This document shows, piece by piece, positions 15,651-35,271 of a stretch of 64,000 nucleotides of DNA. The translations under genes and the position numbers were made by a program. The first letter of the stretch is position 1. Every line of letters begins with the position of its first letter. The stretch lies in the IMG/VR virus record IMGVR_UViG_3300042363_000446; one strand, given 5' to 3'. The notes under the pieces are model-generated. The model was not told the origin of the DNA, did not search any database, and saw only the letters and a list, made by a program, of their open reading frames with translations. This DNA comes from an uncultured virus (IMG/VR IMGVR_UViG_3300042363_000446). Lineage: Duplodnaviria > Heunggongvirae > Uroviricota > Caudoviricetes.

Positions 15651-16736
15651 TTACTTTCTTAGTAGTGGAGGAATGCCAGCGCGTGATACTTTAAATCCAA
15701 AAGCTTTAGCGTTCTTTCTAAGTGTATCAGGTTTTATATCCACTGTCAAGGCTGTTTTAAACCTTGGATCATTTTTTTCTTTTTCACTTGGAATGTAACC
15801 TGATGCAGACTCATTTGTTTCGGCTTTAGCTAATCTATCATAGTAGTTAGGAAATTCTTTTAAATGATCTAACGCGATTTCTTTAGCTACTTGTTTATTG
15901 GTAGTATGTTCTAACTCAACTCGTATTCCTTTGTTCAATTGTTGTATTAGTTGGTTAACAGGTACTGAATGCTTTTTTGCTAGTTCGTGTACTGTTAATG
16001 TGGGTTTGTCTAACTGATCAGCTTCTTCTATACTAAGAGACTTACTATGTAGTTTATCTCTTAATGAGTATAATGCAGTAATGCCACCTTGTGTTCTTAA
16101 TGCTTTATATGACAAGTTTTCAGGTGAAAATTCTCCACCTTTGTCTAATCCTGCTTGCCGATAGCGTTTTACTAAAGATATCGCATCATTTACTTTATCT
16201 AAGTCTTTTGATTTAAGTGTTAATTCTATTAGCTTAGCCAACTTTTCAAATTTAGCTTTAGTTTCTTTATGATCTAGATTAGCTTTGCTTTTCTTAGGAA
16301 AGTGTATCCATTCGTTATTCAATACACTATATTCGCCTAATGACCGCACTGGTTTCTTTACATCTTGTACATATAATTCTACAGGAACACCATGAACAGT
16401 AATATCATGAGAATCGTTATACAATGTTTTTTTAGCAGTAAAAAGTTCTTGATAAACTTCATCATTGGATAGATTGCTAAAATCAACTAAAATGTGTAAA
16501 TCTAAATCAGAATGCGGTGTATAGCTAAATGCTGCGTTAGACCCCGATATCGTAATATCATCTACATCTAATTGACTAACACCAAGTTCTTGTAAGAAAT
16601 CTTTTGCTATTACTATTAGTTGTTCTCTAACTTCTGGATCTAATTGGTCATCGTTCCAAAGAGCAGGGTTAAGTTCATCGTGAAACTTAACTGCATCTGA
16701 TAGACTGAAATCTGTTAATTCTGTTATTAATACCAT
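15651..16736 (-). CDS. Pol-beta-superfamily nucleotidyltransferase with additional C-terminal modules
   Basis: ISGSNA...SDLDLHI (GS...DxD), VELYVQ; C-terminal GIRVELEHT...IALDHL module; start moved to the ATG at 16736, downstream of the terminator and late promoter. Confidence 0.65.
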   Translation of the reverse strand: MVLITELTDFSLSDAVKFHDELNPALWNDDQLDPEVREQLIVIAKDFLQELGVSQLDVDDITISGSNAAFSYTPHSDLDLHILVDFSNLSNDEVYQELFTAKKTLYNDSHDITVHGVPVELYVQDVKKPVRSLGEYSVLNNEWIHFPKKSKANLDHKETKAKFEKLAKLIELTLKSKDLDKVNDAISLVKRYRQAGLDKGGEFSPENLSYKALRTQGGITALYSLRDKLHSKSLSIEEADQLDKPTLTVHELAKKHSVPVNQLIQQLNKGIRVELEHTTNKQVAKEIALDHLKEFPNYYDRLAKAETNESASGYIPSEKEKNDPRFKTALTVDIKPDTLRKNAKAFGFKVSRAGIPPLLRK

Positions 16737-16755
16737 ACTACTATTTAGTATAGAT

Positions 16756-16783
16756 AAAAAGAAAGGGAGCATAAAGCTCCCCT
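16756..16783 (-). terminator. intrinsic terminator after the tmRNA
   Basis: GGGAGC-TTTAT-GCTCCC hairpin then TTTCTTTTT. Confidence 0.85.
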
Positions 16784-16784
16784 C

Positions 16785-17115
16785 TTAGTTGTTTGATAAC
16801 AAGGTAACCAGCCCCGTGAAGCTTACGCCGCTAGGCGAATATCTTCAAGTGCGAACTCATCGTTTGCGTTTACTTTTTTGCTTCTTTAACCGAGAAACTC
16901 CCAGTCCTTAAAGGTGTTCTGCGTTCACCTATTCTCCACATACCTTCAGTTGTTTGGCGAATCCAAATCATCCCCATCAAAAGAGTACTATAAAGAACTA
17001 CCTAATCCCCTTTCAGTAATTTACCATCGCGGTCAACAGGCGGAACGATGTAATACTCTTTTGGTGGAGATGCCGGGGTTCGAACCCGGGTACAAACTTC
17101 CTATCTCATGCTTCA
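16785..17115 (-). ncRNA. ssrA: circularly permuted (two-piece) tmRNA: acceptor piece ~17115->17062, intervening 17061-16976, coding piece 16975->~16785
   Basis: T-arm CCGGG-UUCGAAC-CCCGG and 3' CAUCUCC-ACCA ending at 17062 lie upstream of the 5' GGGGAUG...GGAUUCG at 16975; acceptor stem has G3:U70; tag ORF 16867->16823 = ANDEFALEDIRLAA*. Outer boundaries approximate. Confidence 0.92.
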
Positions 17116-17274
17116 ACGAATTTCTTTTTTAGCAGCGTCATAAAAGCTGCTTGATGTTTTAGTATCAGCTTGTTTTATCAAGCATCTACCACAACAACTT
17201 CCAATTAGTTTTGCTAACTCAGGTTGTCTTTTGATATCTTGTTCTCTAATGTTATTACAGATACATAATATCAT
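17113..17274 (-). CDS. Bfd-like [2Fe-2S] ferredoxin (53 aa; not in the ORF track)
   Basis: MILCICNNIREQDI...IGSCCGRC, with CxC and CxxC; SD AAGGGAG. Confidence 0.75.
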   Translation of the reverse strand: MILCICNNIREQDIKRQPELAKLIGSCCGRCLIKQADTKTSSSFYDAAKKEIR

Positions 17275-17291
17275 AAAACTCCCTTATTATT

Positions 17292-17447
17292 CTATTTAGC
17301 TGGTTGAGAAGCCTCTAGAACTTCGTTAGAAGCTTCTACCCAAGCTTTGATAGTTTCATTTTCACTGATCTTATTACTGAAATTATCTACTACCCACTTG
17401 CATGTGTCAATACTTTTGGAGTGATATCCAGGTAAGTTAACAATCAT
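17292..17447 (-). CDS. small hypothetical protein (MIVNLPGY...)
   Basis: ATG at 17447 overlaps the TAA of the upstream peptide (TAATG). Confidence 0.55.
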   Translation of the reverse strand: MIVNLPGYHSKSIDTCKWVVDNFSNKISENETIKAWVEASNEVLEASQPAK

Positions 17448-17777: not shown

Positions 17778-20700
17778 CTAGTTATCAAATCTAGCTTTTA
17801 ACCATGCCCATTCGTAGCTTAGTTTTAGTTTGTTAAACTCACCCTCAACTTCATTATAATAGTCGCTAGCGTCTTTTGCACCTTTCAAACAGTAGTCAGC
17901 AAAGTTGCCTTCAGCTTTTGTTAGCCAAGTATCTAAACGCTGCTTGCTGATTGAGTCAGTAGCGGCTTTTAGTTTTATTACTTCTCTAAACGCAGTACGC
18001 CAAGTAGCAAACGCATCAGTGTTAAACATAGCCGTACCTGATATTTCTTCTACTACTTCGTGTTCATCGTCTAGTGTAAAGTCTAAGCCTTTACCTATAT
18101 TGTTTAGTACCAATGACTTTTGATAAGCAATCATTGCTTGGTGACCATAGACTAAACCATTCACCGGGTTTTCAGCATAAAAGATATAATGCTTAGCAAC
18201 TTGCATTCTATCGGGTTGCCATGCCCAATCAAACTTGTCATTTACTTTTAGCTTGGCGAAAACTGTAAACGCCCATGGAGTGTTACTTGCTTCTAGTGCA
18301 GCATGATAAGCTTGTACTCTACCATTTATACCATCTACTCTTACTACACGATTAGAAAGTTTGTGAGTTACTTTTAGCAAGTGCTCGTAGTTTTCTTCAG
18401 CATCTTGTTCTCCATTGCTCAAGAATACGATATCAATAGGCTTAGACTTTGCTATACGATCTACTTTTTTGATATATGGATAATCGTACAACTCTCTTTT
18501 TACATACTCTTTGGCTTCTTGAGGCACTATAATTTTTGTAGCACCTTCGCTAGCAACTATAATTGTTTTAGTTCTAGGTGACCAAAGATTCATTGGTTCA
18601 TCGTTTAAAGTTTGAATATTTTCATCTGTGCTGCTAATCATTGTTACATATGGAAAGTCAAACTCTGTGGGTATAGCAGTTGCATGTGTGTCATCATGAA
18701 CGATAATAATTGGTTCTAGCAAACGATCAACTCGCATAGTTTGATTGAAGTTTATCTTTTCGTAATCTTCTAAACTTGCAATACTTTCTAATTGTAGTTT
18801 TGTTTTGTTTACATCTAATAAGAATGTATCACCGAACTTTTGTTTTTCGCTAGGGAACACATGTAGCTGATCTCGTGCAAAAGGATCACTGATATATGTA
18901 AAGTCAAAGTTAGTGTAATCACATACTGAACTGCACAACCAAAGATAATGTTCTTTCTTTGTAATCATATTAGTTAACAAGTTTTTAAAAGTTCTTAAAT
19001 AACTACCGTCGTATTTTATCGTAGTTAAATTAGCTTTTAGTGTTGTATCTAAATTAGTTTTTAGTGTTGTATCTAAATTAGTTTTTAGTGCTAAAAATTC
19101 TGCAACTTGATTAGCTTCTTTATTTCCATGATCTATCAATACAATATCATGTTGACATTGAGTAGCTTTTGCTTTTCTGTCTTTAACAAAGTTTACTATA
19201 GAAAGGTGTTCAATGATTTTTACATACTTAGTATCTTCAGGGAATGTTTCTTTGTTTACTAAAAACGTAGTACCCCAACGTGACCATTGAGTACCAAACA
19301 CTGTTAACATTTTCATTTGCCAGGGGTTAGGATAATAATTAAAGTCAAAGTTTGTGTAATCTAATTCACTGTCTAGAATCCAAAACAATTCTGTAGTAGC
19401 TTTGTTTGCACAACGATTGATAGTGTCAACCCAAGAACTTATATAACGAACTTTTTGTATCGTAGGGAATCTTTCTTTCAACTGTTCATATTTTGAGGTA
19501 GCATTTTGATTGTACCTATCTACAAAAAACATATCAGGCTTTACGAACAGTTTAGACAATGCTTTTTCATCTAGCCCAGTAGTTTCAATAAACTTTAACT
19601 GAGTGTTCCCTCTTATGTATGATTTTGCATTAACAAAATACGTGTGTGTTAATTCACTGTCCACTGAACCAAATACGCTTACATAAGTTGACTCCCACGA
19701 TCCGTCTACTAAGTCTGGTCTCCAAGTAAAATCAAAATCTTGATAATTAATATTTTTTCTAGTTGCCCAAAATACTTCTGTAGAATGTTGTTTCACTAAA
19801 TTATCTAATGTAGTTTCTATTTGATATTTTTTTACTTGTATTCCAATCTCTAGATACACAATGTCGCCTGTGTTATCAGGTGTGACATATCTAGGACCAT
19901 CGTTTTTGTCTGCAATACTACCAAACTGGTATATGTACGAAGGTGAATGAGGATCAGGATGCCAAGTAAAATCAAATGTGTCTTTGTCAAAGTCACTGGG
20001 TATTTGCCAATTGTTAAAGTTAGGCATTAATATTGCTTTGATATCGTCAATATATTTTCTTTCTGTTGCTTCTGAAACATGATATTCTATTGTAGGCATT
20101 TTTTCAGCAGAATATTGCTTATTACCAAATACGTAGATATACGGAGGTTCTTTTGGATCAGGTCTCCACGTAAAGTCAAATTTGTTTTTATTTACTGGAT
20201 GTATAATTTTCCACTTATCCCATTCAGGAAACAGTTCTACTAACTCATCCATGAACTTGATTTCAGTAGCTTCAGGTACGCGATATTCAAGTACATGTTT
20301 TTCTTCTACTGGAAAGTATTTACAGCCCCACTTATATATGAATGGGGGTTCTTTTGGATCAGGTCTCCAAGTAAAGTCAAATTTATTTTTATCTACTAGT
20401 TCTAGTTCTTTCCACCGATCCCATTCAGGTACTAGCTCAACTAATTCATCCATAAATTTAATATCAGTAGCATCAGGTACGTGATATTCAAGTACATGTT
20501 TTTCTTCTACTGGAAAATACTTACAACCCCATCGGTATATAAAAGGAGGTTCAGTAGGCTCAGGATGCCAAGAAAAATCAAAAGTAGACTTATCAATAAG
20601 TTCTAATTCTTTCCAACGATCCCATTCCGGTAAAAGTTCAATTACTTGATCCATATATTTGATTTGATTAGCCCCAGCGCAGTAGTATTCTACTGTAGGC

Positions 20701-22151
20701 ATCTTTTCAGCAGAGTATTGCTTATTACCAAACACATAAATATACGGAGGGTCTTTTGGATCAGGTCTCCAAGAAAAATCAAAAGTAGATTTATCAATGG
20801 AATAATTTATTTTCCAACGATCCCATTCAGGTAATAGTTCAATTACTTGATCCATATATTTGATTTCTGTAGCATCAGGTACGCGATATTCTAACACATG
20901 CTTTTCTTCTACTGGAAAATACTTACAGCCCCACTTATATATGAATGGTGGCTCGTGTAAATCAGGACGCCAAGTAAAATCAAATTTAGTTTTGTCTATT
21001 AACTCAATTTCTTTCCATCTATCCCATTGTGATTCTAATTCAACTACTTCATCCATGTATTTTACTTCAGTAGCACCTGGTGCATGATATTCAAGTACGT
21101 GTCTTTCAAACATAGAATAGTACTTAGAAGCCCACTTATATATAAACGGCGGTTCCTTAGGATCGGGGCGCCAAGTAAAGTCAAATTTAGTTTTGTCTAT
21201 TAATTCAATTTCTTTCCACCGATCCCACTCAGGTACTAGATTAATTACTTGATCCATATATTTGATTTCTGTGGCATCAGGTACGTGATACTCAAGTACG
21301 TGCTTTTCTTCTACTGGAAAATATTTACAACCCCATTTGTAAATGAAGGATGGTTCTGTTGGATCAGGACGCCAAGTAAAATCAAAAGTAGACTTGTCAA
21401 TAAGTTCTAGTTCTTTCCACCGATCCCACTCAGGTAATAGTTCAATTACTTGATCCATATATTTTATTTCTGTGGCATCAGGTACATGATATTCAAGTAC
21501 GTGCTTTTCTTCTACCGGAAAATACTTACAACCCCATTTATATATAAACGGCGGTTCAGTGGGATCAGGTCTCCAAGTAAAGTCAAACTTGTTTTTATCT
21601 ATAAGTTCTAATTCTTTCCATCGTGATTTTTGTTCAACAAGTTCAACTAATCTTGTCATAAACTTTACGTCAGTAGCACCCTCTACATGATATTCAATAG
21701 TTGATTTTAGTTCTGCTGATACCCACTTGTTACCCCATACATAGATATAAGGAGGATCAGTAGGATCAGGGTGCCATGAAAAATCAAACTTTGTTTGATC
21801 AATATCGTCTAATACTTTCCAGCACTCAGTAATTTCATTTTTTCTGTTAACTGGGTCAACATCAGCACGGTATACTGTGTATCCTTTGTGATCTTTAGGA
21901 CACAACCAAGTTCCTGAATCTTTTTGATGTTGGCTAGGCCAAACATTATTATGATCTTGCGCCCATACATCTTCGTCAGGTAAGAACTCAAAGTCCCAAT
22001 CCCAGTCAAAGTTTTTATAATCACCATATTCGTTGATTATCCAGAAATGTTCAGTAGTTGCTTGTTGTCTAGCGTCTTCTAATGACTCAGCAAACTTTTC
22101 TCTCGGATGAACATTGGGTTTTTTGTTGTAGTAAAATACGTCTCTAATCAT
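17778..22151 (-). CDS. 1457-aa multidomain glycosyltransferase-like protein with 67-aa tandem repeats
   Basis: C-terminal DIVFLSNGE..AEENY...RVDGINGRVQAY domain similar to ORF 33982-34932; recurring FDF.W.PD modules. Confidence 0.65.
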   Translation of the reverse strand: MIRDVFYYNKKPNVHPREKFAESLEDARQQATTEHFWIINEYGDYKNFDWDWDFEFLPDEDVWAQDHNNVWPSQHQKDSGTWLCPKDHKGYTVYRADVDPVNRKNEITECWKVLDDIDQTKFDFSWHPDPTDPPYIYVWGNKWVSAELKSTIEYHVEGATDVKFMTRLVELVEQKSRWKELELIDKNKFDFTWRPDPTEPPFIYKWGCKYFPVEEKHVLEYHVPDATEIKYMDQVIELLPEWDRWKELELIDKSTFDFTWRPDPTEPSFIYKWGCKYFPVEEKHVLEYHVPDATEIKYMDQVINLVPEWDRWKEIELIDKTKFDFTWRPDPKEPPFIYKWASKYYSMFERHVLEYHAPGATEVKYMDEVVELESQWDRWKEIELIDKTKFDFTWRPDLHEPPFIYKWGCKYFPVEEKHVLEYRVPDATEIKYMDQVIELLPEWDRWKINYSIDKSTFDFSWRPDPKDPPYIYVFGNKQYSAEKMPTVEYYCAGANQIKYMDQVIELLPEWDRWKELELIDKSTFDFSWHPEPTEPPFIYRWGCKYFPVEEKHVLEYHVPDATDIKFMDELVELVPEWDRWKELELVDKNKFDFTWRPDPKEPPFIYKWGCKYFPVEEKHVLEYRVPEATEIKFMDELVELFPEWDKWKIIHPVNKNKFDFTWRPDPKEPPYIYVFGNKQYSAEKMPTIEYHVSEATERKYIDDIKAILMPNFNNWQIPSDFDKDTFDFTWHPDPHSPSYIYQFGSIADKNDGPRYVTPDNTGDIVYLEIGIQVKKYQIETTLDNLVKQHSTEVFWATRKNINYQDFDFTWRPDLVDGSWESTYVSVFGSVDSELTHTYFVNAKSYIRGNTQLKFIETTGLDEKALSKLFVKPDMFFVDRYNQNATSKYEQLKERFPTIQKVRYISSWVDTINRCANKATTELFWILDSELDYTNFDFNYYPNPWQMKMLTVFGTQWSRWGTTFLVNKETFPEDTKYVKIIEHLSIVNFVKDRKAKATQCQHDIVLIDHGNKEANQVAEFLALKTNLDTTLKTNLDTTLKANLTTIKYDGSYLRTFKNLLTNMITKKEHYLWLCSSVCDYTNFDFTYISDPFARDQLHVFPSEKQKFGDTFLLDVNKTKLQLESIASLEDYEKINFNQTMRVDRLLEPIIIVHDDTHATAIPTEFDFPYVTMISSTDENIQTLNDEPMNLWSPRTKTIIVASEGATKIIVPQEAKEYVKRELYDYPYIKKVDRIAKSKPIDIVFLSNGEQDAEENYEHLLKVTHKLSNRVVRVDGINGRVQAYHAALEASNTPWAFTVFAKLKVNDKFDWAWQPDRMQVAKHYIFYAENPVNGLVYGHQAMIAYQKSLVLNNIGKGLDFTLDDEHEVVEEISGTAMFNTDAFATWRTAFREVIKLKAATDSISKQRLDTWLTKAEGNFADYCLKGAKDASDYYNEVEGEFNKLKLSYEWAWLKARFDN
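19026..19090. repeat. 24-bp tandem repeat x2.7 (KTNLDTTL)
   Basis: TAAATTAGTTTTTAGTGTTGTATC units, in frame. Confidence 0.85.
19920..21821 (-). repeat. 201-bp/67-aa intragenic tandem repeat, 9 full units + 1 partial
   Basis: consensus WKELELIDKxxFDFTWRPDPxEPPFIYKWGCKYFPVEEKHVLEYHVPDATEIKYMDQVIELLPEWDR recurring every 201 nt. Confidence 0.95.
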
Positions 22152-22185
22152 GAAACTATTTAGAAGTTAATACTTACTGTTGAAA

Positions 22186-23697
22186 TTAATCTTTGGTGTA
22201 GACAGGTAAATTATACTTTTGTGAGAAAGCAATAGCGTCTTGTTCATCATTTACAATAGGCTGACCTTTGATATTCAAACTAGTGTTTAACAGAATAGGA
22301 CACCCAGTCTTTTTGTAAAACTCTTTTAACAAAGTATATAAACCAGGATGCTGTTCGTAGTTAACAGTTTGCACTCTGCTTGTACCGTCTGCGTGTATAA
22401 TAGCAGGAAACTTAGTGGGCTTTTTGCACTTAGCAACAAACTGCATATAAGGTGATACTGTATTGTTGGGCATTTCAAAGTATTCGTGTACAAACTCTTC
22501 CATGATAACAGGTGCAAATGGTCTAAACTTTTGTCTATGCTTAATAGCGTTTACTCTGTCTTTTATTTCATTGCCTCTTGGATCAGCCATCAAACTACGA
22601 TTGCCTAACGCTCTAGGTCCAAACTCTGCCTTACCGTTTGCTATACCAAATATTTCACCACGCTCTAAACTCTCAAGTGCTTTTTGTATAGGATACTCGC
22701 CCTTAATATCATAACCTAAGTAAGGAGTTTGCCAATTAACTTTATTACCAGTTCTGTTAAAATGCTCTAGTGCTGCTGCACCAAGAGAACTACCTGCGTC
22801 ACCTGGATTTGGCATGATATGAATGTTTTCATACCATCTGAACAATTCACTATTTGCTACACAGTTAAGAGCTACACCTCCCATGAAAACTAAATTATTT
22901 GAATTAGTAAGTTCTTTAGCATACAGTGCATAAGCCATAATTCTTTTTTCTACTTCCATTTGTGCTGCTCTAGCAATATCATAATCAGTATACTCAGTGT
23001 ACATGTCTTTTGATATACCTCTATGTAAGTTCTTTTTCATTTTTAATGCTTTTCTAGGATTATGAAAAGGTTCAGGGTAGCTAAAGAAATCATGTGACAT
23101 TTTGTAGCTGAGGAAAGTAGCGGCATCCTTAGAGCCATAAGCAGCCATGCCCATAAGAATGTACTCATCTTCCATTGGCTTTAAGCCAACTCTGTGTGTC
23201 ATAGCACTGTAGAATAAGCCAAGACTACTAGGGTACTTTACGCTATGCTTTTTAGTAAGCTTATTATCTTTCCAATGCCATATCGTAGCAGTATCAAATT
23301 CGCCTATGGCATCTATAACCATAATGGCACATTCATCAAAGTCACTAGTTAACACGCCTGCTGCCGCATGTGTTTCATGATGCCAATATTCTTTTATAGG
23401 TATTCCTGCTAATTGAGGATAAAATTGTTCAATCCATTCTTTCGTACTAGGTTCTTTTAGAGCTTGCCACGAGCCTGCCCTTATATGTCTTAGCTTTTTG
23501 AAAAAGTTCTTTTCGTGTAAAACAATTTGATCGGGCTTGCCGAACGCAAGTGCTGCATTAATGATTTCTTGATTCAAGAAACAATCATTTTTTATTTTAC
23601 TGTATCGTTCGCTGTGTGCGGCAAAGACGATGTTACCGTCTTGTAACACAGTAACCGCAGCATCATGAAACCCTGCACTAATTCCTAAAATAATCAT
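22186..23697 (-). CDS. carbamoyltransferase (NodU/CmcH family)
   Basis: ILGISAGFHDAA, HHETHA, GGVALNC, GDAG, EFGPRALGNRS, FRPFAP, LNTSLN. Confidence 0.95.
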   Translation of the reverse strand: MIILGISAGFHDAAVTVLQDGNIVFAAHSERYSKIKNDCFLNQEIINAALAFGKPDQIVLHEKNFFKKLRHIRAGSWQALKEPSTKEWIEQFYPQLAGIPIKEYWHHETHAAAGVLTSDFDECAIMVIDAIGEFDTATIWHWKDNKLTKKHSVKYPSSLGLFYSAMTHRVGLKPMEDEYILMGMAAYGSKDAATFLSYKMSHDFFSYPEPFHNPRKALKMKKNLHRGISKDMYTEYTDYDIARAAQMEVEKRIMAYALYAKELTNSNNLVFMGGVALNCVANSELFRWYENIHIMPNPGDAGSSLGAAALEHFNRTGNKVNWQTPYLGYDIKGEYPIQKALESLERGEIFGIANGKAEFGPRALGNRSLMADPRGNEIKDRVNAIKHRQKFRPFAPVIMEEFVHEYFEMPNNTVSPYMQFVAKCKKPTKFPAIIHADGTSRVQTVNYEQHPGLYTLLKEFYKKTGCPILLNTSLNIKGQPIVNDEQDAIAFSQKYNLPVYTKD

Positions 23698-24803
23698 TGG
23701 TAAATAAATGGATCTCGTTTTCTAAGTTCTTCCAATCTCGCTTTTAATCGTTGTTCTCTTTCATCTTGATATGACGATTCTAATCCCTTTTTGTATATAC
23801 TCAACAGTGAAAAAATCTCAGTTCTTAGATTATTTTTAAATTCTTCAGTTTCGTTTAATATAGCCATAAGTTTTTTACCCTCACTATAATTATAGCAATA
23901 ATGAGCAGCAACTCTAAATTTAGTAAAATTATCAGAATCTGATTCTGATAACACCCACCTTTTCCAATAATCACTATTAATTACTGAAATAAAAAAGACA
24001 GCAAATTCTGCCGAACAATGATCTCTTAGTTGGTATAATACAGTGGATTGTATAGATCCCAATTGAGGAGCTATATTAACTGCATCTACATTTGCTTTTG
24101 TTCTATACAATAAATCGCTTTCTAACAAATAATCAGCGTTATGTTCTTTGAACATCAATCCATATGAGTGTATCTTTTCTGAAGTTACTTTATTCACAAT
24201 TGGATCAAATGTTCCAACTTGAGTGTGTTTAGTTAAACTTCCGGTTTGCGTAACAAAGAATTTTAAATTATTTTTATATTTTTGAACAAACACTAATTGC
24301 TTGTCTAAGTTAGCAATACTTTCATCTAATCCAGTATTAGTATTATCTTCACTACCAAATTCAAACATGATATCAGGATTAAGTGACAATGCATAATCAA
24401 ATAGCTTGATTGCTACTGATTCTTGCATATCTTGACTTACTCTACTTACGTCTATATGAATTAAATCAAATCCTGACTCTATATCAGTTTCTATAGTTTT
24501 TAAGCATCTATTTACTGCATAATCTAAAGTTAAGCGTTTATCATCATCACTAAAGTAAGGTCCGCAATGATCTCTACAAATCAATACTCGGTTAGGATCA
24601 TAATTTTTATTTTGTTTAACATACTCAACAAAAGATTCAGTAGTAAACGCATAGCCAGAATCAAAATCTACTTGATTTCTACTAGCTATTAACATGATAG
24701 GATAATCGTGAATCTTACTATATTCTAAGCAAAGATTTACTATATCTTTACTCATAGGTCCTAGACCTAGTTTAAATTTACTTATGTTCATTAATAATAA
24801 CAT
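23694..24803 (-). CDS. GatZ/KbaZ-like (tagatose-phosphate epimerase / class II aldolase non-catalytic) TIM-barrel protein with a fused KRDPFIY tail
   Basis: IASRNQVD..SGY, CRDHCGP, GFDLIHID, FEFGSE, EHNADYL, NIAPQL. Confidence 0.75.
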   Translation of the reverse strand: MLLLMNISKFKLGLGPMSKDIVNLCLEYSKIHDYPIMLIASRNQVDFDSGYAFTTESFVEYVKQNKNYDPNRVLICRDHCGPYFSDDDKRLTLDYAVNRCLKTIETDIESGFDLIHIDVSRVSQDMQESVAIKLFDYALSLNPDIMFEFGSEDNTNTGLDESIANLDKQLVFVQKYKNNLKFFVTQTGSLTKHTQVGTFDPIVNKVTSEKIHSYGLMFKEHNADYLLESDLLYRTKANVDAVNIAPQLGSIQSTVLYQLRDHCSAEFAVFFISVINSDYWKRWVLSESDSDNFTKFRVAAHYCYNYSEGKKLMAILNETEEFKNNLRTEIFSLLSIYKKGLESSYQDEREQRLKARLEELRKRDPFIYQ

Positions 24804-25257
24804 CCTTTAAATACAAACAAGCGTCAAGAACTGCACCAGATCCAGCCGCGCTTTCAGTGATAAATTTAGCCGCTTGTTTTGCTTCTTTTCTAGCACTTGA
24901 GGGTGCTATACCTATCTTAACTTTTTCAAGAATAGGAGCATCGTGATAACCGTCACCTATAAACGCAGTCTCATCTAGATTACAATTATCTATGAACCAT
25001 TCCATACGATGTCCTTCAGGAACAAGATGCAACTGTTCTGAGCTAAACTTCCAATCAGTTACAATTCTAGCATAGGTGATATCCCAGCCAACCTTGTCAG
25101 CCGTTATAAACTGTATGTCTTTTATATAATTTTTAATTATCTTTAAGCCATCACTATCATGTGGACCAAATACTTTATATATTTTTCCTTCTTTACTATA
25201 TATTAAGTGACCGGTAGTTAATACCCCGTCTATATCCAAAACTAACTTAGTAATCAT
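24778..25257 (-). CDS. KdsC-like HAD phosphatase
   Basis: LDIDGVLT, FIGDGYHD, GSGAV. Confidence 0.85.
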   Translation of the reverse strand: MITKLVLDIDGVLTTGHLIYSKEGKIYKVFGPHDSDGLKIIKNYIKDIQFITADKVGWDITYARIVTDWKFSSEQLHLVPEGHRMEWFIDNCNLDETAFIGDGYHDAPILEKVKIGIAPSSARKEAKQAAKFITESAAGSGAVLDACLYLKDVIINEHK

Positions 25258-25978
25258 TTTTTTCAGCTTCTATTTTGTCAAATTCTAGTTCGTTTACTAG
25301 TACACCGGTATATAACATAAATTGTTTTAAAAATTGATGTTTGTAAAACTCTGACCCACTTATGTATTCTACATCGTTGTTTAGACATTGTTTGTATAAT
25401 TCTTTCTTTTTTATTGCTAAGTCTATTACTAGTTTCTTGTTTTTTAAACTAAGCAAAGGACTTTCATCATCAACCGTTCCTATACCGGTGCAGTTTATAA
25501 CTACTTCAGCATTGTTATCATGTCTATCGTCCCAGTTTTGCAATCTGCGACTATACATATTTATAGTGATGTCTCTGTTGGATAAATATTTACTATACAT
25601 GCTAGCCATTGATCCGTCGCCTAGTATAGCAACTGACTTTGATTGTATTTTAGTAGATGTTTGGATAACGCCTTCAATGTCGGTATTATACCCGTATAGC
25701 TTTTTGTCTTTAATAACAATTGTATTACATGAGTTGTAGTTGCTGACCGAAGAGTCACAATAATTAAGCATCAAACTTGCTTGCTGCTTAAATGGCATAC
25801 TTACACTTATACCACTAACGCCCTGATCTATTGCTGCTCTTATTTGATCTTCAAAATTTTCATCAGTAGCCGGTAAGGGAACATATTCAGCTTCTATGTT
25901 GTAAAGCTTAAAGAAATTAGTGTAAAAATATTTTCCGTTAGAACTTGGATATTTGCTAAGACTAATGAATCGTTTCAT
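25247..25978 (-). CDS. shikimate-dehydrogenase-family oxidoreductase (divergent)
   Basis: GISVSMPFK, SCNTI, GYNTD, ILGDGSMA, INCT. Confidence 0.8.
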   Translation of the reverse strand: MKRFISLSKYPSSNGKYFYTNFFKLYNIEAEYVPLPATDENFEDQIRAAIDQGVSGISVSMPFKQQASLMLNYCDSSVSNYNSCNTIVIKDKKLYGYNTDIEGVIQTSTKIQSKSVAILGDGSMASMYSKYLSNRDITINMYSRRLQNWDDRHDNNAEVVINCTGIGTVDDESPLLSLKNKKLVIDLAIKKKELYKQCLNNDVEYISGSEFYKHQFLKQFMLYTGVLVNELEFDKIEAEKNDY

Positions 25979-27509
25979 TTAATTCTAATTTAGAAAACAT
26001 AAGAATACCTAAATACCATAAAAACTCATCAAAGGGTTTAGTATGTAAGGGCGACATGTTCCAAAATATAATAGGAACAAGTAACTTTACTTTATGTTCA
26101 TTATAGTTTTTATCTCTTATATATTCTAGTAGTTTGGATATATAGTATTCATAATCGTCACAGTGAGGTACATCTAGATAAACTTTAGTACCTTTTTTGG
26201 TTATCTCAAAAGTATTGTTTTTAATCTTACTATAATCTATTACAAATCCACCATATAACTTTGCCAAATCATAGTACAAATCTCCTACTTCAACAGAAGT
26301 ACCGAATTCATGTCTCCAGTCTATAACAATAAATTCATTGGTATCAGTAATAATAGTATTATCAAATTGTAAATCGCCGTGAGTATACGAAGGTATAATA
26401 TCGTTGCATAGCATATCAAAATTTATATTTTGTATATAATGTGTGTAGTCTTTTACCGGAACATCATTAACATGAGTCACTTCTGGTAAATTTTTGTTTT
26501 TTTCTATAAACATTTTTATTCTTTTTAATGTTTTGTCTTTATAGAAGTTTAGCGCATCTGAATTAATATCAGCGTGTTTTTTTATCCATACTTTTTTGTC
26601 TAACCATTCAAGGAAATCAGAAAAAACATTTGGATCATTTTTTACATATAAAGTAGAACCCGGGCAATAATCATACACTAAAAATTGCCCTTGTTGCTTA
26701 ACATTACGAGGGTAAGCATTGGGGTTAGTTAAATACTTTTTATATTTTTTAATAGATACTTCAGGATCTTTCCAACATTTTACTACTTTGTTATTAACAA
26801 TGTATGTAACTTCATCTGTTTTAGTAAAATCATAATGTTCGGTCTTTTTAACTTCATTTTGGTAAATATTTAAGTTGCCAAAATCTAACCAAGAATCTAA
26901 GTTTTTAACTTTGCTATTTAATAAAATAGTATAAATTATTTCAGGACTGTCTCGCGTTAACAATCTTTTCTTGAAAGAATCAAAATCTTTTATAAACATT
27001 ACTCCAGTAAATGAAGACCAAGAACTATCAGTATTTTGTTTAAATTTATACTCTTTTATCCTATCATCTTTTACATTAAAAGTAGTATATTCTTGATGCA
27101 ATTTTTGATCAACTTGTTTTACAAAGTAAGTATCCTCATTATACTCACCCAATATATTTTCATTAAAATAGGTGTCACATGGAATATAAAAGAACGAACT
27201 ATTAATTTTATCTAAACACTGTGTTATTGTGTAGCCCGGGCCTGTCCAAGATTGTTTATAATGTTCTATATCAACAAATTCAATATTTCTATCACTGTAC
27301 GTTAATTCGCAAAAGTCTTTTACTTGTTGTTTGTTGTATCCAATAGGGATAATAAACTTAGTGTCTTTGGGGAACTGTTCTATAATATGTGATAACACTG
27401 GTTTATGTTTATATGATACTAAACTTTTGTTTATAAATTGAGATATAACTCCCAATCGTGATCCCAATCCAGCAGTAGGGATAATAACAGTAATGTTATT
27501 CATGTTCAC
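25962..27509 (-). CDS. NTP-transferase + APH/choline-kinase-like fusion
   Basis: IPTAGLGSRL..K N-terminus; HGDLQFDN and VIDWR...GDLYYDLAKL kinase motifs. Confidence 0.85.
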   Translation of the reverse strand: MNMNNITVIIPTAGLGSRLGVISQFINKSLVSYKHKPVLSHIIEQFPKDTKFIIPIGYNKQQVKDFCELTYSDRNIEFVDIEHYKQSWTGPGYTITQCLDKINSSFFYIPCDTYFNENILGEYNEDTYFVKQVDQKLHQEYTTFNVKDDRIKEYKFKQNTDSSWSSFTGVMFIKDFDSFKKRLLTRDSPEIIYTILLNSKVKNLDSWLDFGNLNIYQNEVKKTEHYDFTKTDEVTYIVNNKVVKCWKDPEVSIKKYKKYLTNPNAYPRNVKQQGQFLVYDYCPGSTLYVKNDPNVFSDFLEWLDKKVWIKKHADINSDALNFYKDKTLKRIKMFIEKNKNLPEVTHVNDVPVKDYTHYIQNINFDMLCNDIIPSYTHGDLQFDNTIITDTNEFIVIDWRHEFGTSVEVGDLYYDLAKLYGGFVIDYSKIKNNTFEITKKGTKVYLDVPHCDDYEYYISKLLEYIRDKNYNEHKVKLLVPIIFWNMSPLHTKPFDEFLWYLGILMFSKLELNETIH

Positions 27510-27933
27510 TTATAATCCTACCGTGTGTTCTTCCTGCATCGTCTTGTAATCTATAAACATCATCTAACTCAGTAGTACTGGTTTCTATAAACTCTAAATC
27601 AGTAACAGCAACAACTCTATGGACAATACCCGGTGTTATAGTAAATGTTACTCCCGGAGAGAGTTCTATCACTTCAAACGTTTCTTCGTATTCATTTACC
27701 TGGCCTATAGTCATTCCTTTTTCTAAAAACATATCTATATCAAATATAGTTTTACTGCGATACAATTTACCCGTACCTTTGATAATACAATTAGTTTCAC
27801 ATTTGTACTTATGTACTTGCAAGCTAGTACGGTTTCCTGCTAAGAATAATATATTTTTTACAGCATAGGGGGTTCTGGTACCATCTTCTATCCATGATTC
27901 ATGGCCCCATGGTTTTTTAACTAATTTAGACAT
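27496..27933 (-). CDS. cupin (sugar-phosphate isomerase type)
   Basis: KPWGHE, SLQVHKYKCE, PGIVHRV, DDVYRLQD. Confidence 0.85.
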   Translation of the reverse strand: MSKLVKKPWGHESWIEDGTRTPYAVKNILFLAGNRTSLQVHKYKCETNCIIKGTGKLYRSKTIFDIDMFLEKGMTIGQVNEYEETFEVIELSPGVTFTITPGIVHRVVAVTDLEFIETSTTELDDVYRLQDDAGRTHGRIISEHE

Positions 27934-27969
27934 TGTAATTCCTCGTGAAGAAAAAATTTGCTATAGCCT

Positions 27970-29013
27970 TCAGAAGAAATCACCCAAATTATCTGAATTT
28001 CTTCGTATGTTAATAGCAGTTGCTCCTGGATATGGGTTTAACTCATTATAATCGTTGATCAATATTCGCGCAGAATCATTTAAATTCATTAATAGTTGAA
28101 AGTCGTTAAAACCCAGAGACTTTAACATCTGATGTGTAATATCTCTAACAGATTCAGGTCTAGAGGTTGTAAAGATTATCTGAGATCCCTGATCCTGCAT
28201 TTTCAAAACAGTACCGACATTATTATTGAGAGGTACCGGCACACTGTCGTAATTATCAACCCCGTAACGTTGTTGATGTTTAATAATAGTTCCGTCAATA
28301 TCACAGAATACAACAGGTTTATTATTATGTTCTAACCAATCATACATCGTACTTATATCAATATAATCAGTTGTATCTACTATAAAAAAAGGTTGATTAG
28401 CTGACAACATATATCGTACAACATCACTAATAAATATTTCATTGTTTTCTTGTAAATTAGAATATTTTATATCCTGCACCGCTGTTCTGAAATAATGTGC
28501 CTGTTGGAACTTATAACCCCCTGTACAATAAGTATCAGATAATACCCGTTTTTCTGATATTTTTTGCACAAATCCAGTATCATTGAATGATACATAACTT
28601 TTATTAACAGGACTATTTACCGTTAATTTTTTATTAAAGGTAGAGACACATAAATAATGTCCTTCAACTATTTCATGCTTGAAAAAACTATCACAATCTT
28701 TTACTAGTATAGGACTAGCCATGGAAATTTGTGCAAGTTCTATTATTGCATCAACGGTGTCGGCCGGTCCCGAAGTTTGGTCAGGTACTATTACTAAATT
28801 TATTAAATTTCCGAATTCATGTTGTATAAAATCTTTTATATTAAACTTCTGTTCGTGTTCGGCAAGAACACCTATATGTATTTTATATTTGGTCAAATAA
28901 GGTTCAACCGCTCTGAAGAGCATACTTTTGCCTGCATAATCATATAACATAAATTTAGGTTTGTCCTCGGGAAACCGAGTTACTAACTCAGTTGCCGGCA
29001 CTATTATTTCCAT
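27970..29013 (-). CDS. NTP-transferase-like + HAD phosphatase fusion
   Basis: IIVPA...TRF..KPK, KDCD, ISEK; C-terminal CDIDGT, TTSR, LIND. Confidence 0.8.
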   Translation of the reverse strand: MEIIVPATELVTRFPEDKPKFMLYDYAGKSMLFRAVEPYLTKYKIHIGVLAEHEQKFNIKDFIQHEFGNLINLVIVPDQTSGPADTVDAIIELAQISMASPILVKDCDSFFKHEIVEGHYLCVSTFNKKLTVNSPVNKSYVSFNDTGFVQKISEKRVLSDTYCTGGYKFQQAHYFRTAVQDIKYSNLQENNEIFISDVVRYMLSANQPFFIVDTTDYIDISTMYDWLEHNNKPVVFCDIDGTIIKHQQRYGVDNYDSVPVPLNNNVGTVLKMQDQGSQIIFTTSRPESVRDITHQMLKSLGFNDFQLLMNLNDSARILINDYNELNPYPGATAINIRRNSDNLGDFF

Positions 29014-30479
29014 ACTCTGTTCATTTCCTCTAATAACATTTTTTGTTCAATTGTTCCCTTCTGTGAATATTTATATACCCGTAATAATATTAGAATATAA
29101 AGATAGTCATTAAATGCTTCAGGAAACGCAATAACAAGTTCTTGTTTGATTGCAGATAATTTCAAATTGAATTCATTTTTATTTTCGTGTCTAATAAACC
29201 ATTTACCGTCAAGATCATGTCGCAACTTAACTATATCAAATATCCAGGAATTATATGCATTGGAATCAGGGTCTATCATGTAAAAGTTGGGTTCCTTATA
29301 TATAATGTTGTTTAATGTAAAGTCGCCGTGGCAGAAACCAGATGGTAGAATTTTAGGCAATTTATTTAAAAGTTCGGTGATAGTAAAGGGTAATTTATTA
29401 TCGTTCTTGAAACAATCTAACTGATTTTTATATATTAATGTATAATTCTTTTCTTGAGTATTTATATTTTTAAATCTGTTCATGGTATCAATAACAAAAT
29501 TTACAAATTTATGAATATTATCTAACTTTATAAAAGTTTTCATGTCGTATCCAGATATATATTCCATGTCAAGAACATTTTCTTCTTTATCTATAATTTT
29601 AGGAACTAAAAAGTTATTCTGATTCAATAATATTAATTTTTCATAATTTCTTTCTATATTATCTATTTTTCGTATAATAAAATCATTAAGACTTTTAATC
29701 ATTAGCACTTTACTTCCAGAAAGTCCAGAAAACTCTTTTATAATCGTATCTTGAGAATTTAGTGATCTATACCATTTGTCAGAATCTTTGCTAGCTATTT
29801 CAAAATCAATATGCGGTTTGTTTCTAGAATTGGGCCTAACAATACAAATCTGTTTTCCTACCCCTTTTATTGTTTTCGGTGCATATTTAAAGATTTTAGA
29901 TATTTTTTTTGCTAACCAAACATGTATATCTACCGTATTATGTAATTCGCTTACAGGAAGATTTATTAATTTAATAATACTTTCATACTTTCCTATTATC
30001 ATCTGATCCTGTATCCACATATGTACTACAGATTCGGTAGTGAATGTGTATATACGATCTTCATTCATTTCATTTATTTCATTTAACCATTCAAAAAAAT
30101 GCGCAACATTAACATCATATTTAAAATACAAATCCGGTCTAATAATCAGACATACATCATATTTTATGTTTGATACTTTAACAAGTGCTATTCCTGCCAT
30201 CCATCTATTAATCATTCTATGATTATTATTTTTACATGCTATATTACATGTTATAGCACTTCCTATATCAACACCTTTACAATTAGGTATAAGTCGTCTA
30301 ATATTATATTCAGTTACGGTTTCATCGACATGAATGTTCAATTTATCATTGTGTTGTTTTGTAGTTTCCCAAGTTGAAAAATAAACATCTACGTCAGGAT
30401 TGTCTAAAAACTTCCAAGATTTGTGTGCAATCTCAAACTCTCTAAAAGCACCGGAGATTAACACAGCTATTTTTGTCAC
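29004..30479 (-). CDS. glycosyltransferase-like domain + APH-type kinase fusion
   Basis: KIAVLISGAFR...YDVCLIIRPD N-domain; GLSGS, HGDFTLNN, MIDP, DIVKL kinase domain. Confidence 0.75.
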   Translation of the reverse strand: MTKIAVLISGAFREFEIAHKSWKFLDNPDVDVYFSTWETTKQHNDKLNIHVDETVTEYNIRRLIPNCKGVDIGSAITCNIACKNNNHRMINRWMAGIALVKVSNIKYDVCLIIRPDLYFKYDVNVAHFFEWLNEINEMNEDRIYTFTTESVVHMWIQDQMIIGKYESIIKLINLPVSELHNTVDIHVWLAKKISKIFKYAPKTIKGVGKQICIVRPNSRNKPHIDFEIASKDSDKWYRSLNSQDTIIKEFSGLSGSKVLMIKSLNDFIIRKIDNIERNYEKLILLNQNNFLVPKIIDKEENVLDMEYISGYDMKTFIKLDNIHKFVNFVIDTMNRFKNINTQEKNYTLIYKNQLDCFKNDNKLPFTITELLNKLPKILPSGFCHGDFTLNNIIYKEPNFYMIDPDSNAYNSWIFDIVKLRHDLDGKWFIRHENKNEFNLKLSAIKQELVIAFPEAFNDYLYILILLRVYKYSQKGTIEQKMLLEEMNRVWK

Positions 30480-31213
30480 AGTAAATCTTTGTTAGAGAAA
30501 AGCTCATTTTTATTTATATGATCCAATAAATGATGTGCCCAAGCCTTATGCGCTTTTTCTAGAGGATGTAATCTAGGCCCTATCTCAAATCCATGCATGT
30601 GCGTGAATTGGGCGAACGATATGTCATCATAATATCTAGGTTTGTATATTTGATTAACTACGCTGGCTGGCACACTTTCTGTAGTTATCATTTTCTCGTA
30701 TTTATTACCCATAGATGATGTTAATAAATACGGTATTTTATTTTTCATTAAGAAATGTTGCAAACCGAGAACATGTAACATATCACTCATGTATATTCCT
30801 TTATTATCTTTTACTATGTTAATAAATAACTCCCACAATTTATACAAATCAGAAGATTTATCGCCCGGAGGAAATGTATACATGAACGGGAACCAGTTTG
30901 TGTCTATATAAAATTCTCTTCTATATGCATGTGTCAAACTTATATTAACAAATATTTTTTCAGGTGCGTATTTTTCTAATGCCTGTGTTATATTTGTTAT
31001 TGTTTTTCTATAGGCTCTTTCATTTGATCCTCCCGGTAATGCTTTATTGACATATTGTTTTAATCCCGGGATAGTATCAGCCATGATACCCGAATAACAT
31101 TTCTTTCTATGGTATAACGTGAAATCGTATACATCACGAGTTTGTAATCTAGGATATCCTAATTCTTGCCCAAATGCAAATGAGTCTCCGGATATGTAAA
31201 AATATTCTATCAT
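30476..31213 (-). CDS. SGNH/GDSL-like hydrolase/acyltransferase
   Basis: GDSFAFG, N.ALPGGSN, HPLEKAH; start moved to the ATG at 31213 (ATGA overlap). Confidence 0.75.
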   Translation of the reverse strand: MIEYFYISGDSFAFGQELGYPRLQTRDVYDFTLYHRKKCYSGIMADTIPGLKQYVNKALPGGSNERAYRKTITNITQALEKYAPEKIFVNISLTHAYRREFYIDTNWFPFMYTFPPGDKSSDLYKLWELFINIVKDNKGIYMSDMLHVLGLQHFLMKNKIPYLLTSSMGNKYEKMITTESVPASVVNQIYKPRYYDDISFAQFTHMHGFEIGPRLHPLEKAHKAWAHHLLDHINKNELFSNKDLL

Positions 31214-31950
31214 ACCTGATAATACCTCATATGGTTCATACATATATCTCCGTATTTGATTATAGAATCTGCCGGTATACATTCTTTTCTATAAACAACT
31301 TCACCAGCATTGCTGTTTTTCATATACACGATGTTATATTTATTGCAATAGTCGTGCAGTATTACCCCGGGGCCTAAATATGATAAATCATCAGTCGTAC
31401 TAATAATATGACGATAAACGTCAGTAACTACATCTATGCAATATGATGATCCGTAAAAAAACACATCTGATAAGTTTGTTCGGTTGAACTCCGTTTTCAT
31501 TCTATCTGCATGATTTATATATAAATCTAGTGTATGGTTTGGTTGCTTAAAAATAAAATTAGATGCAGGGTCAAATATTGAATCATATCTAGCTCTAACT
31601 ACGCAATCATATCTAAAATTATTCCTTATTTCGTATTGTTTTTTCAAATTGTTTGCCATCATCATACTATAAAATAAACTATGCCATGGGCCCTCGGTTG
31701 GGCAGTCCTGCTTGCTTTCTATTAATGTTAATTTAGGATCATATTTATTCAATACTATTTGTAGATCATCTCTGTTAACTAGCTCGTCTTCTGACCAATA
31801 AACAAAATCTTTCTTCATTTTCCATGTGTTATAATCCCAAGCATGACAGAAATAATCAGTTTCATAATCTCCACTGAAATAATTTTGTATAGACTTTAAT
31901 GTAAATTCCGCAGTCCTAGATTGCCCGCTTAAACAAACAGCTATTTTCAT
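31210..31950 (-). CDS. putative glycosyltransferase-like protein
   Basis: KIAVCLSGQSR, YFCHAW, YDCVVRARYD, SDVFFYG; paralog of the N-domain of 29004-30479. Confidence 0.65.
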   Translation of the reverse strand: MKIAVCLSGQSRTAEFTLKSIQNYFSGDYETDYFCHAWDYNTWKMKKDFVYWSEDELVNRDDLQIVLNKYDPKLTLIESKQDCPTEGPWHSLFYSMMMANNLKKQYEIRNNFRYDCVVRARYDSIFDPASNFIFKQPNHTLDLYINHADRMKTEFNRTNLSDVFFYGSSYCIDVVTDVYRHIISTTDDLSYLGPGVILHDYCNKYNIVYMKNSNAGEVVYRKECIPADSIIKYGDICMNHMRYYQV

Positions 31951-32411
31951 CTGGTTATATGCACCATTGGTATTTTTATACTTTTTATATGATAGAAGAA
32001 TCTAGTAGCATCGGTCATGTCCCAACTAGAATCAATCTTATTAAAGATGAATTCACATAACCTATCAAAAACTAGTGAATTTGCATAAAATCCACTAGGA
32101 GATATCCCTTTTTTATAGCTGTTATCATAAAAAACGTTATTTAAATAGTAGATTTTATTATCTATTTCATGTTTAAAATTTAAATTGTTTAACAAATGTA
32201 CGTCTTCACATTGTAGCGCAATACAAATATCAAAATTATTTTTATGATATATTTCATACTGTCGTTTTTGATTAGCGGTAAGCCACATACTAGTATATTG
32301 ACATTTATCAGATACAGCAAAAGTTTCTATACGATAATCCTTTTCACTGAGACTTATATCATTCTTGATTGGTGTATTACCGAACACACATAGAGCTATA
32401 TTTTTAATCAT
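31947..32411 (-). CDS. hypothetical protein (degenerate paralog of 31210-31950)
   Basis: KNIALCVFG and KRQYEI..NNFDICI resemble the neighbour's KIAVCLSG and KKQYEIRNNFRYDC. Confidence 0.55.
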   Translation of the reverse strand: MIKNIALCVFGNTPIKNDISLSEKDYRIETFAVSDKCQYTSMWLTANQKRQYEIYHKNNFDICIALQCEDVHLLNNLNFKHEIDNKIYYLNNVFYDNSYKKGISPSGFYANSLVFDRLCEFIFNKIDSSWDMTDATRFFYHIKSIKIPMVHITR

Positions 32412-33979: not shown

Positions 33980-33981
33980 AC

Positions 33982-34932
33982 TTACCAACCCTCAATTCGT
34001 CTGATTACTTCCATTTCAGTGACTAGTGTGCCTTGATTTCTGAAATCTCGCTTGTAGTGTCTTTTGAAAAACTTACTTTGTTCTTTATTTAACGTGTCTA
34101 CTGGTAAGCCTAGTTTATCATGTAAACTAAAACCTAGTGTTATTATTTTTAAAGCAGGATCACTGTCTTTATGTTCTTCCCAAAGTGCGGCTATATTATC
34201 AAACCATTGTACTGTGGTATGATCCCAATCTGTAAGCATTGTCATATACGTTCCTAACCTAGCACCATATATAGCCCACATACCGTTGGTAACATCTGCG
34301 CCCACGTTATGCCATATAGTCAAGTTGTCTACGTTTCTCATAGCAACAGTTTCTTTGAATTCATCAACTGTTGGCTTTCTACCCCTGTCTAGTGACATTT
34401 TGACACCTTCTCTAAAGCCAGCTCGCCAGGCTTGAAAAGGTGTGTAGTTTGGATATGTAGTAGAATAAGAATCCCACATAGCGTAATATGAACTGTCAGC
34501 ATCCATACAAAAATCTACTATGCGTGATACATCACCTTCAGTTTGATTTTCATGCGTCTTCATATTAGCAACGTATTCTTTTGTCCAAGAACTAATACCA
34601 CCGTTGCCGTATCTTAATCCGTTTATAGCGTTTATAGCTTTCCATCTAAACTGAGCATTCTTAAATTTATCATCTTTGCCAGTAAAGTCAAGTTGTAAGT
34701 TAAAGAAAGATTCTTCGGGTAAGTTGTCACCGTCAATCAAAATAAATCTATCAGTGTCACTCATTTCGCCTGCTGCTTTGTGTGCAGCATCACTGCCCTT
34801 CACGCCGTCTACTCGCTTGGCCCAGGGCACCATGTTCTTTATCTTTAGCCAAAATTCTTCTTTGGCCGGCTCGTCAAAACTTAAATAAATTACATCAAGA
34901 TCAGCTATATCAATTATATCGTTAGAGTTCAT
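33982..34932 (-). CDS. GT-A-like glycosyltransferase
   Basis: DVIYLSFDEP, RVDGVKGSDAAH, FILIDGD (DxD), AWRAGFREG. Confidence 0.7.
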   Translation of the reverse strand: MNSNDIIDIADLDVIYLSFDEPAKEEFWLKIKNMVPWAKRVDGVKGSDAAHKAAGEMSDTDRFILIDGDNLPEESFFNLQLDFTGKDDKFKNAQFRWKAINAINGLRYGNGGISSWTKEYVANMKTHENQTEGDVSRIVDFCMDADSSYYAMWDSYSTTYPNYTPFQAWRAGFREGVKMSLDRGRKPTVDEFKETVAMRNVDNLTIWHNVGADVTNGMWAIYGARLGTYMTMLTDWDHTTVQWFDNIAALWEEHKDSDPALKIITLGFSLHDKLGLPVDTLNKEQSKFFKRHYKRDFRNQGTLVTEMEVIRRIEGW

Positions 34933-35269: not shown

Positions 35270-35271
35270 AG

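Follow-up and report, generated by a model that had tools for sequence, protein, structure and literature searches.

The tmRNA locus of a T4-like jumbo phage

The window, i.e., the whole 64-kb stretch of DNA analysed here, is phage DNA with baseplate, spanin, thymidylate synthase and MoxR-type genes, and its minus strand carries a gene for a circularly permuted (two-piece) tmRNA (Table 1). ARAGORN called a single permuted tmRNA (16732-17154) with the tag ANDEFALEDIRLAA, as it had been read in a preliminary description of the sequence, and the Rfam model tmRNA_permuted (RF04321) matched with 78.9 bits (cut-off 47, E 1.9e-13) over its whole length (positions 1-213), the sole gathering-level match in the 64 kb; the one-piece model RF00023 scored just 19.2 bits on the gene. 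With the permuted ARAGORN call and RF04321 above its cut-off, the identification as a phage-borne two-piece tmRNA holds. The order proposed for the minus strand was found again: T arm, acceptor 3' strand and ACCA (to 17062), then the 5' strand from 16975. All seven pairs of the acceptor stem form, including G3:U70, and a discriminator A and an encoded CCA are present. The resume codon GCA (16867) opens a 14-codon tag that ends in Leu-Ala-Ala before a stop codon (16825-16823), an ending rightly recognised as a ClpXP-type degron, and a terminator-like hairpin (16784-16762) lies 3' of the gene. The positions given earlier for these elements stand; only the range has to be extended, as the conserved gene begins at about 17121, slightly beyond 17115. 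The gene is real and intact and, judged from its sequence, very probably functional.

Table 1. Features of the tmRNA locus (window positions) and Clp genes of the enclosing phage record G001 (G001 positions).
Feature	Position	Strand	Remarks
Pol-beta-type nucleotidyltransferase-like protein	15651..16736	minus	downstream neighbour
Intrinsic-terminator-like hairpin with U tail	16755..16784	minus	near-identical hairpin in L272
Coding piece	16786..16975	minus	acceptor 5' strand, SmpB-binding loop, P2 5' strands, pseudoknot 1, tag frame, 3' element
3' pseudoknot-like element	16816-16786	minus	
Tag reading frame ANDEFALEDIRLAA and stop	16823..16867	minus	sequence reading, ARAGORN
Pseudoknot-1-like element	16880..16930	minus	stem 16930-16926/16916-16912
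C at E. coli A20 equivalent	16957	minus	A in 69/70 permuted genes; faces 17092, base of helix P2a
Acceptor 5' strand	16975-16969	minus	
Intervening segment, 86 nt	16976..17061	minus	closed by 11-13-bp stem
Acceptor piece, 60 nt	17062..17121	minus	P2 3' strands, T arm, acceptor 3' strand, ACCA
Encoded ACCA	17065-17062	minus	
Acceptor 3' strand	17072-17066	minus	
T arm	17089-17073	minus	
U at E. coli G333 equivalent	17092	minus	G in 69/70 permuted genes
53-aa four-cysteine ORF, Bfd-like	17113..17274	minus	between TAAATA and tmRNA gene
TAAATA, T4-late-promoter-like motif	17293..17298	minus	putative promoter
Sigma-70-like promoter match, 11/12	17382..17410	minus	inside upstream 69-aa ORF
ClpP, ClpS, Hsp20, ClpX cluster	G001 19189-25242		L303, L304, L306
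ClpA-like ATPase beside DnaJ	G001 about 65900-68200		L303, L304, L306

The 5' boundary of the acceptor piece was placed at the onset of conservation among 46 relatives. The closing stem of the intervening segment stacks on or extends the acceptor stem and covaries (two-sided changes in 9/9 pairs); the interior is weakly folded (z -1.14 for the segment alone) and unconserved, and identity to the segment of the closest relative (L272) is 57%, compared with 80-87% in the mature parts. Two candidate contents of the segment were rejected: a riboswitch or ribozyme (no Rfam match at E up to 10) and a protein (only a 27-codon TTG frame, with neither ribosome-binding site nor Pfam match). In the coding piece, stem 1 of pseudoknot 1 shows two-sided changes in 5/5 pairs, the presumptive 2-bp loop pairing to 16881-16880 never covaries, and the inserted hairpin (16906-16888) is missing from 16 of the 45 aligned relatives. 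Pairing of the second stem of the 3' pseudoknot is poor across the aligned genes, at 11% and 74% of cells.

Upstream of the gene, the TAAATA motif at 17298-17293, which we liken to a T4 late promoter, is the probable start of a transcript comprising a small ORF and the tmRNA. TAAATA occurs at most 35 nt upstream of the tmRNA gene in 25/46 relatives vs 16/503 background windows, and in 13 of those 25 it lies 4-6 nt upstream; in this genome the distance is about 170 nt, so that the acceptor piece would carry the translated ORF unless trimmed. The sigma-70-like match further upstream is weak evidence for a promoter, as the whole window has nine matches of this quality. The stop codon of the small ORF (53 aa) falls within the first bases of the acceptor piece; its protein has no Pfam match, and the Atlas lead is Fer2_BFD at 0.85 (13% of that cluster). 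Because the homologous ORF in L272 sits one gene further upstream, the overlap seems to have come about as a side effect of rearrangement. Directly before the acceptor piece and within this ORF, the stretch 17120-17200 contains strong hairpins (z -4.3), possibly the mark of a processing site. The downstream neighbour, a conserved protein in which GS and DxD motifs are invariant and which has a DUF5661 tail, is preceded by a TAAATA of its own (16747-16742) and probably stands outside the tmRNA system. We rejected a CCA-adding or repair enzyme, as CCA is already encoded and no Foldseek match of the structural model (pLDDT 82.8) reached E 0.001; the matches were just diverse Pol-beta-type enzymes. 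The type of tmRNA lying upstream of this neighbour differs from phage to phage, a pattern suggestive of allele replacement at a single locus.

The window lies, at 99.98% identity, within a longer record (G001; 266,967 bp), which is 76% complete, and 500 bases across the tmRNA gene show no difference between the window, G001 and L001. Its T4-type capsid, portal and terminase genes make G001 a T4-like jumbo phage, and the baseplate wedge of the window is 32-35% identical to those of jumbo myophages (Phosso, Atu_ph07, Rak2-like group). No tRNA gene was found in its 267 kb. SmpB, already reported missing from the window, was indeed not detected there (none in 51 scanned window ORFs), nor was it found in the 267 kb of G001, whose missing part could hold it; none of the 10 phage records searched has it. 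Elsewhere in the window, a 1457-aa protein (17778-22151), mostly composed of repeats of about 60 residues rich in Trp, Pro and Asp and lacking a Pfam match, is followed by a long cluster of sugar-modification genes (22186-37513), and a 6265-aa ORF (40876-59673) is probably structural. In the rest of G001, a heme oxygenase gene adjoins one for a ferredoxin-dependent bilin reductase (L315:15288-16476), a pair that is a possible clue to the host, and a plus-strand block of bacterial appearance including DUF1552 and a glycosyltransferase (L309:13868 to L310:3485) may account for the 'provirus' label of the record.

Relatives of the gene and a clade of phage tmRNAs

A search with the downstream nucleotidyltransferase-like gene yielded 78 loci, one of them this phage; a permuted tmRNA lay within 3 kb upstream in 17 of the 77 others, a count that includes several near-duplicates and several structural types. 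A search pattern built from features common to the window gene and its nearest relative among these loci matched 29 loci in IMG/VR (26 called tmRNA by ARAGORN) and 56 in metagenomes (45 called). In 185,579 GTDB genomes none of the 7 matches to the same pattern was a tmRNA, and a stricter pattern gave 0; exact patterns overlook diverged copies. A bacterial donor was therefore rejected as far as these two patterns reach, and the results suggest a phage-only range of the clade described below; a sample of Bacteroidota (0/21 over the cut-off) says little on range. Against phages, BLAST queries with the window gene and with two of its relatives returned just matches of T-arm size, as did one query against plasmids; no cultured phage was accepted as a carrier of the clade.

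Parsing left 46 distinct genes, of which 45 were aligned and one, truncated, was omitted. The structure drawn on the window copy pairs in 90.0% of cells across the 45 relatives, compared with 42-46% in slid controls, and two-sided changes occur in 40/60 pairs, a value reached by 0/500 shuffles. Kinship is not taken into account in the shuffles, and the bases of the search motif cannot vary, since the genes were selected by them. Compensatory swaps in the acceptor and T stems separate even sister genes, and the intervening segment ranges from 8 to 107 nt and is unalignable. Such variability is what one would look for in a spare tmRNA that stands in for the host's own after cleavage by a toxin or a defence RNase, with variable stems and spacer escaping the nuclease, and phage tRNAs, which serve as backup for cleaved tRNAs, offer an analogy. 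However, neutral compensatory change predicts drifting stems equally well, and G001, unlike phages that back up cleaved tRNAs, has no tRNA gene in its 267 kb; we regard such a counter-defence role as quite unlikely.

A tree of 70 genes placed 41 of the 43 motif-bearing genes, all from viral and metagenome contigs, on one branch (99/98). The other two lie elsewhere, so a single clade of all 43 was not adopted, although forcing them together was not rejected (p-AU 0.24). The window copy is sister to L272 on a terminal branch of 0.087, near the median of 0.076, and the genes of XacN1, DLP6, SM1 and Bhz51 lie outside the 41-member clade; as the tree includes one bacterial gene only, it does not tell where among bacteria the clade belongs. 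The preliminary description had tied permuted tmRNAs to Alphaproteobacteria and a few cyanobacterial and betaproteobacterial lineages, yet the gene misses the cut-offs of all three lineage models: it fits beta_tmRNA best (RF01850; 64.9 bits, cut-off 84), followed by a partial match to alpha_tmRNA (RF01849; 28.5 bits, cut-off 50) and by cyano_tmRNA (RF01851; 22 bits, cut-off 70). Its relatives score 70-103 bits on the beta model, one fits alpha better, and some pass beta or alpha. Since the window copy misses all three cut-offs while some relatives pass, the clade is, by these sequence scores, a mosaic within the alpha/beta permuted type. Independent permutation of a one-piece gammaproteobacterial gene was weighed because the P2 of the window copy resembles that of E. 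coli, and was set aside on the ground that alpha- and beta-type genes have the same break point and 3' elements.

The viral search for permuted ssrA proposed in the preliminary description succeeded: permuted genes were confirmed in XacN1, DLP6, BUCT628, SM1, Bhz51, Mosig and Phosso. As such genes occur in cultured phages of Xanthomonas, Stenotrophomonas, Pseudomonas and Acinetobacter, the permuted form is no marker of an alphaproteobacterial host; the gammaproteobacterial hosts of such phages have a one-piece tmRNA of their own, and the permuted form in a phage tells nothing of the host class. The genes of XacN1, DLP6, BUCT628 and SM1 (L353, L354, L355, L356) exceed the Rfam cut-off and are unannotated in GenBank. 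The Sinorhizobium phage Phosso (L359) has a permuted alpha-type gene of about 600 nt that ARAGORN missed, its extra length perhaps reflecting a long intervening segment, and the 1.39-Mb Microvirga plasmid pMVF16-2 carries an alpha-type two-piece tmRNA (L360:523-907).

Some related loci combine the tmRNA with reading frames. At L014, L021, L030 and L047, all upstream of the nucleotidyltransferase-like gene, an ORF of 62-75 aa with a ribosome-binding site begins where the acceptor piece does, at its 5' end, and crosses the T arm and the intervening segment into the coding piece; the segments (79, 91, 79 and 94 nt, respectively) keep the frame, and the ORFs share the peptide RNLF(F/Y)TEREW with synonymous changes. 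Here the tmRNA precursor may, from its sequence, double as mRNA. At L323 (G033) and L325 (G005) the intervening segment holds ORFs of 68 aa and 32 aa, each with its own ribosome-binding site and ATG, and the segment of L328 (G006) shows a similar start.

Changes at the SmpB elbow and in the phage ClpX

SmpB-contact and frame-setting bases of tmRNA are A15, U17, C18, G19, A334, U85 and A86 (PMC8363625). The equivalents of all seven are present in the window copy. The equivalents of A20 and G333, which are A and G in 44/45 aligned relatives, are changed to C and U; this double change adjoins the SmpB site, occurs in 1 of 70 genes (the distinct parsable permuted genes, 69 viral, phage or metagenomic and one from the Microvirga plasmid, the unparsed Mosig and Phosso genes excluded) and is not shared by the sister gene L272, which keeps A and G. 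We take the A20-G333 pair to be sheared; no statement on its geometry was found in the literature searched. In the trans Hoogsteen/sugar-edge family, C-U is allowed and C-G is not (PMC2673412), which makes the double change look compensatory and not like decay, provided that the pair is sheared. PMC1168896 instead pairs C21 with G333, unlike the E. coli sequence itself, which gives C21-G332. The change could weaken SmpB binding.

Two readings would make more of it. The gene might be a recently disabled copy, inactivated in this lineage by the loss of two otherwise invariant bases, both of which L272 retains. We consider this highly improbable, because the changes strike facing bases and no other invariant base, all helices still pair, the branch length is ordinary, and the C-U pair conforms to the trans Hoogsteen/sugar-edge rule (PMC2673412), as compensation in a sheared pair would. 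It is just as improbable that the RNA is a decoy which binds SmpB or alanyl-tRNA synthetase without tagging and blocks host trans-translation, a role with a precedent in mycobacteriophage DS6A, whose RNA consists of the tRNA domain only (PMC4131195, PMC11915505), and one that a change next to the SmpB site might fit: a decoy would need neither a tag frame nor a pseudoknot, and yet the resume context is intact and the tag frame open to Ala-Ala, here and in 67/70 parsed genes, and the pseudoknot-1 stem covaries.

A Pfam scan of G001 (217 ORFs outside the window, with 10 border-spanning ORFs left out, one of these being partly scanned) matched ClpX, ClpP, ClpS, a ClpA-like ATPase, Hsp20, DnaJ, GroES and peptide deformylase. 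ClpX scored above both equivalog cut-offs and ClpP above the subfamily cut-off and below that of TIGR00493 (302.5 vs 308.6); the ClpA-like protein and ClpS remained under theirs. According to PMC7652416, the ssrA tag is read by ClpX residues Y153, V154, T199, V202, R228 and H230, replacement of His230 by Ala in E. coli ClpX strongly raises the KM for ssrA-tagged substrate, and the main ClpXP determinant is the terminal Ala-Ala. G001 ClpX keeps 5 of these 6 residues, with Asn in place of H230, and its tag-reading loop is RKN, compared with RKH in 6/6 other copies (five related records).

A permuted tmRNA and ClpX occur together in all four near-complete jumbo relatives found via the neighbour gene. 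This co-occurrence, the set of Clp, chaperone and deformylase genes, and the departure of this genome from the clade at the tmRNA elbow as well as in the RKH loop would be compatible with a private tag-and-degrade circuit, in which phage ClpX or ClpA with ClpP preferentially reads the phage tag, so that rescue and the recycling of amino acids are phage-controlled and the host is needed just for SmpB, AlaRS, EF-Tu and RNase P. Against this, the tag ends in an ordinary Leu-Ala-Ala that host ClpXP can read, over 100 kb separate the Clp genes from the tmRNA in G001, permuted tmRNAs are found in cultured small phages and in G037 (complete, 170 kb), which lacks ClpX and thereby argues against a strict tmRNA-ClpX link, and the two departures may be unrelated. 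We hold such a circuit to be unlikely, and take the same doubtful view of its extension, that a phage-only tmRNA lineage and phage ClpX, ClpA, ClpP and ClpS form a semi-private late circuit for rescue and recycling whose elbow and ClpX loop have been retuned off the host. If this were true, C-U would represent natural compensatory variation at a site of tmRNA that is regarded as invariant.

Proposed function and comparison with known systems

The best reading is ribosome rescue with host SmpB: a functional, late-transcribed, host-processed phage tmRNA that uses host SmpB and sends tagged products to Clp proteases, to which we give a probability of about 0.72. As the late-promoter-like motif suggests, the gene would be transcribed late, jointly with the small upstream ORF, up to the terminator. 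By analogy with the tmRNA family, the 86-nt segment would be removed by the tRNA-processing enzymes of the host, with RNase P cutting at 16975 and the 3' end being trimmed back to the encoded CCA, so that two pieces held together by base pairing remain; the host's alanyl-tRNA synthetase would charge the tmRNA via G3:U70, and host SmpB and EF-Tu would bring it to ribosomes stalled on broken mRNA, where it would add (A)ANDEFALEDIRLAA and free the ribosome for phage late translation. The tagged fragments might then be degraded by host Clp proteases, or by the phage ClpX or ClpA-like ATPase with ClpP. This reading is favoured by the ARAGORN and Rfam calls, the covariation, the kept SmpB bases, the Ala-Ala end, the Clp genes, the late-motif enrichment and the ordinary branch; the C/U between SmpB-contact bases, Asn230 of ClpX, the motif about 170 nt off and the poor 3' pseudoknot stem speak against it.

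Two-piece tmRNAs are less rare in phages than the preliminary description had implied: Buchholz et al. (2022; PMC9004378) count 53 such forms among 133 unique phage tmRNAs and list XacN1 (385 kb), Mendera and BRock as permuted (Table S1). Nawrocki, Petrov and Williams (2025; PMC11915505) counted 79 phage sequences; the clade motif was not found in the examined parts of their seed alignments, where gaps can hide a motif, and their Table S2 or full database may already contain the clade. No functional test of a two-piece phage tmRNA was found in the literature searched. The uncultured phage is a poor test system, for which XacN1, SM1, Menderaviruses and Phosso are better suited; its natural C/U variant offers a ready test of SmpB-elbow geometry.

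The window gene shares with the RF04321 family (PMC11915505) the gene order, the tRNA-like domain, G3:U70, the intervening segment and the tag frame, and differs in being phage-borne and in its own P2-terminal helix, the pseudoknot-1 hairpin and the C/U at A20/G333. Like RF01850 of Betaproteobacteria, the best-fitting lineage model, it has a 3' element after the stop that fits the consensus, whereas its P2 is shorter and aligns with gaps. It resembles the genes of Melnitz (Methylophilales), Mosig (Pelagibacter), XacN1 (Xanthomonas) and Mendera (Stenotrophomonas) in being a permuted tmRNA of a lytic-type myophage, and the roles proposed for the phage tmRNAs of PMC9004378, which include that of a jumbo phage (XacN1), are the same. 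Unlike those, it belongs to a different tree clade, has just T-arm-sized BLAST matches to cultured phages and shows no glutamine riboswitch match. An early timing was proposed for Melnitz (PMC9004378); here, in contrast, the promoter evidence points to late expression, with a late-promoter-like motif at the 5' end of the gene in roughly half of the phage clade. tmRNA and SmpB occur in huge phages generally (PMC7162821), and tmRNA has been reported together with Clp genes in the jumbo phages AP-J-162 and G (PMC11242549, PMC12484599). As in the Sinorhizobium phages AP-J-162 and Phosso and in Bacillus phage G, tmRNA, ClpX and ClpP occur in one genome, and in Phosso the tmRNA gene that accompanies ClpX is likewise permuted; the Phosso gene, however, is alpha-type, and those three phages carry many tRNAs, unlike G001 with none in 267 kb. 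From the tag-less tmRNA of the DS6A type the window copy is set apart by its full tag frame and pseudoknot elements. The two-piece phage tmRNA is thus an already published kind, from which this copy differs in structural details only.
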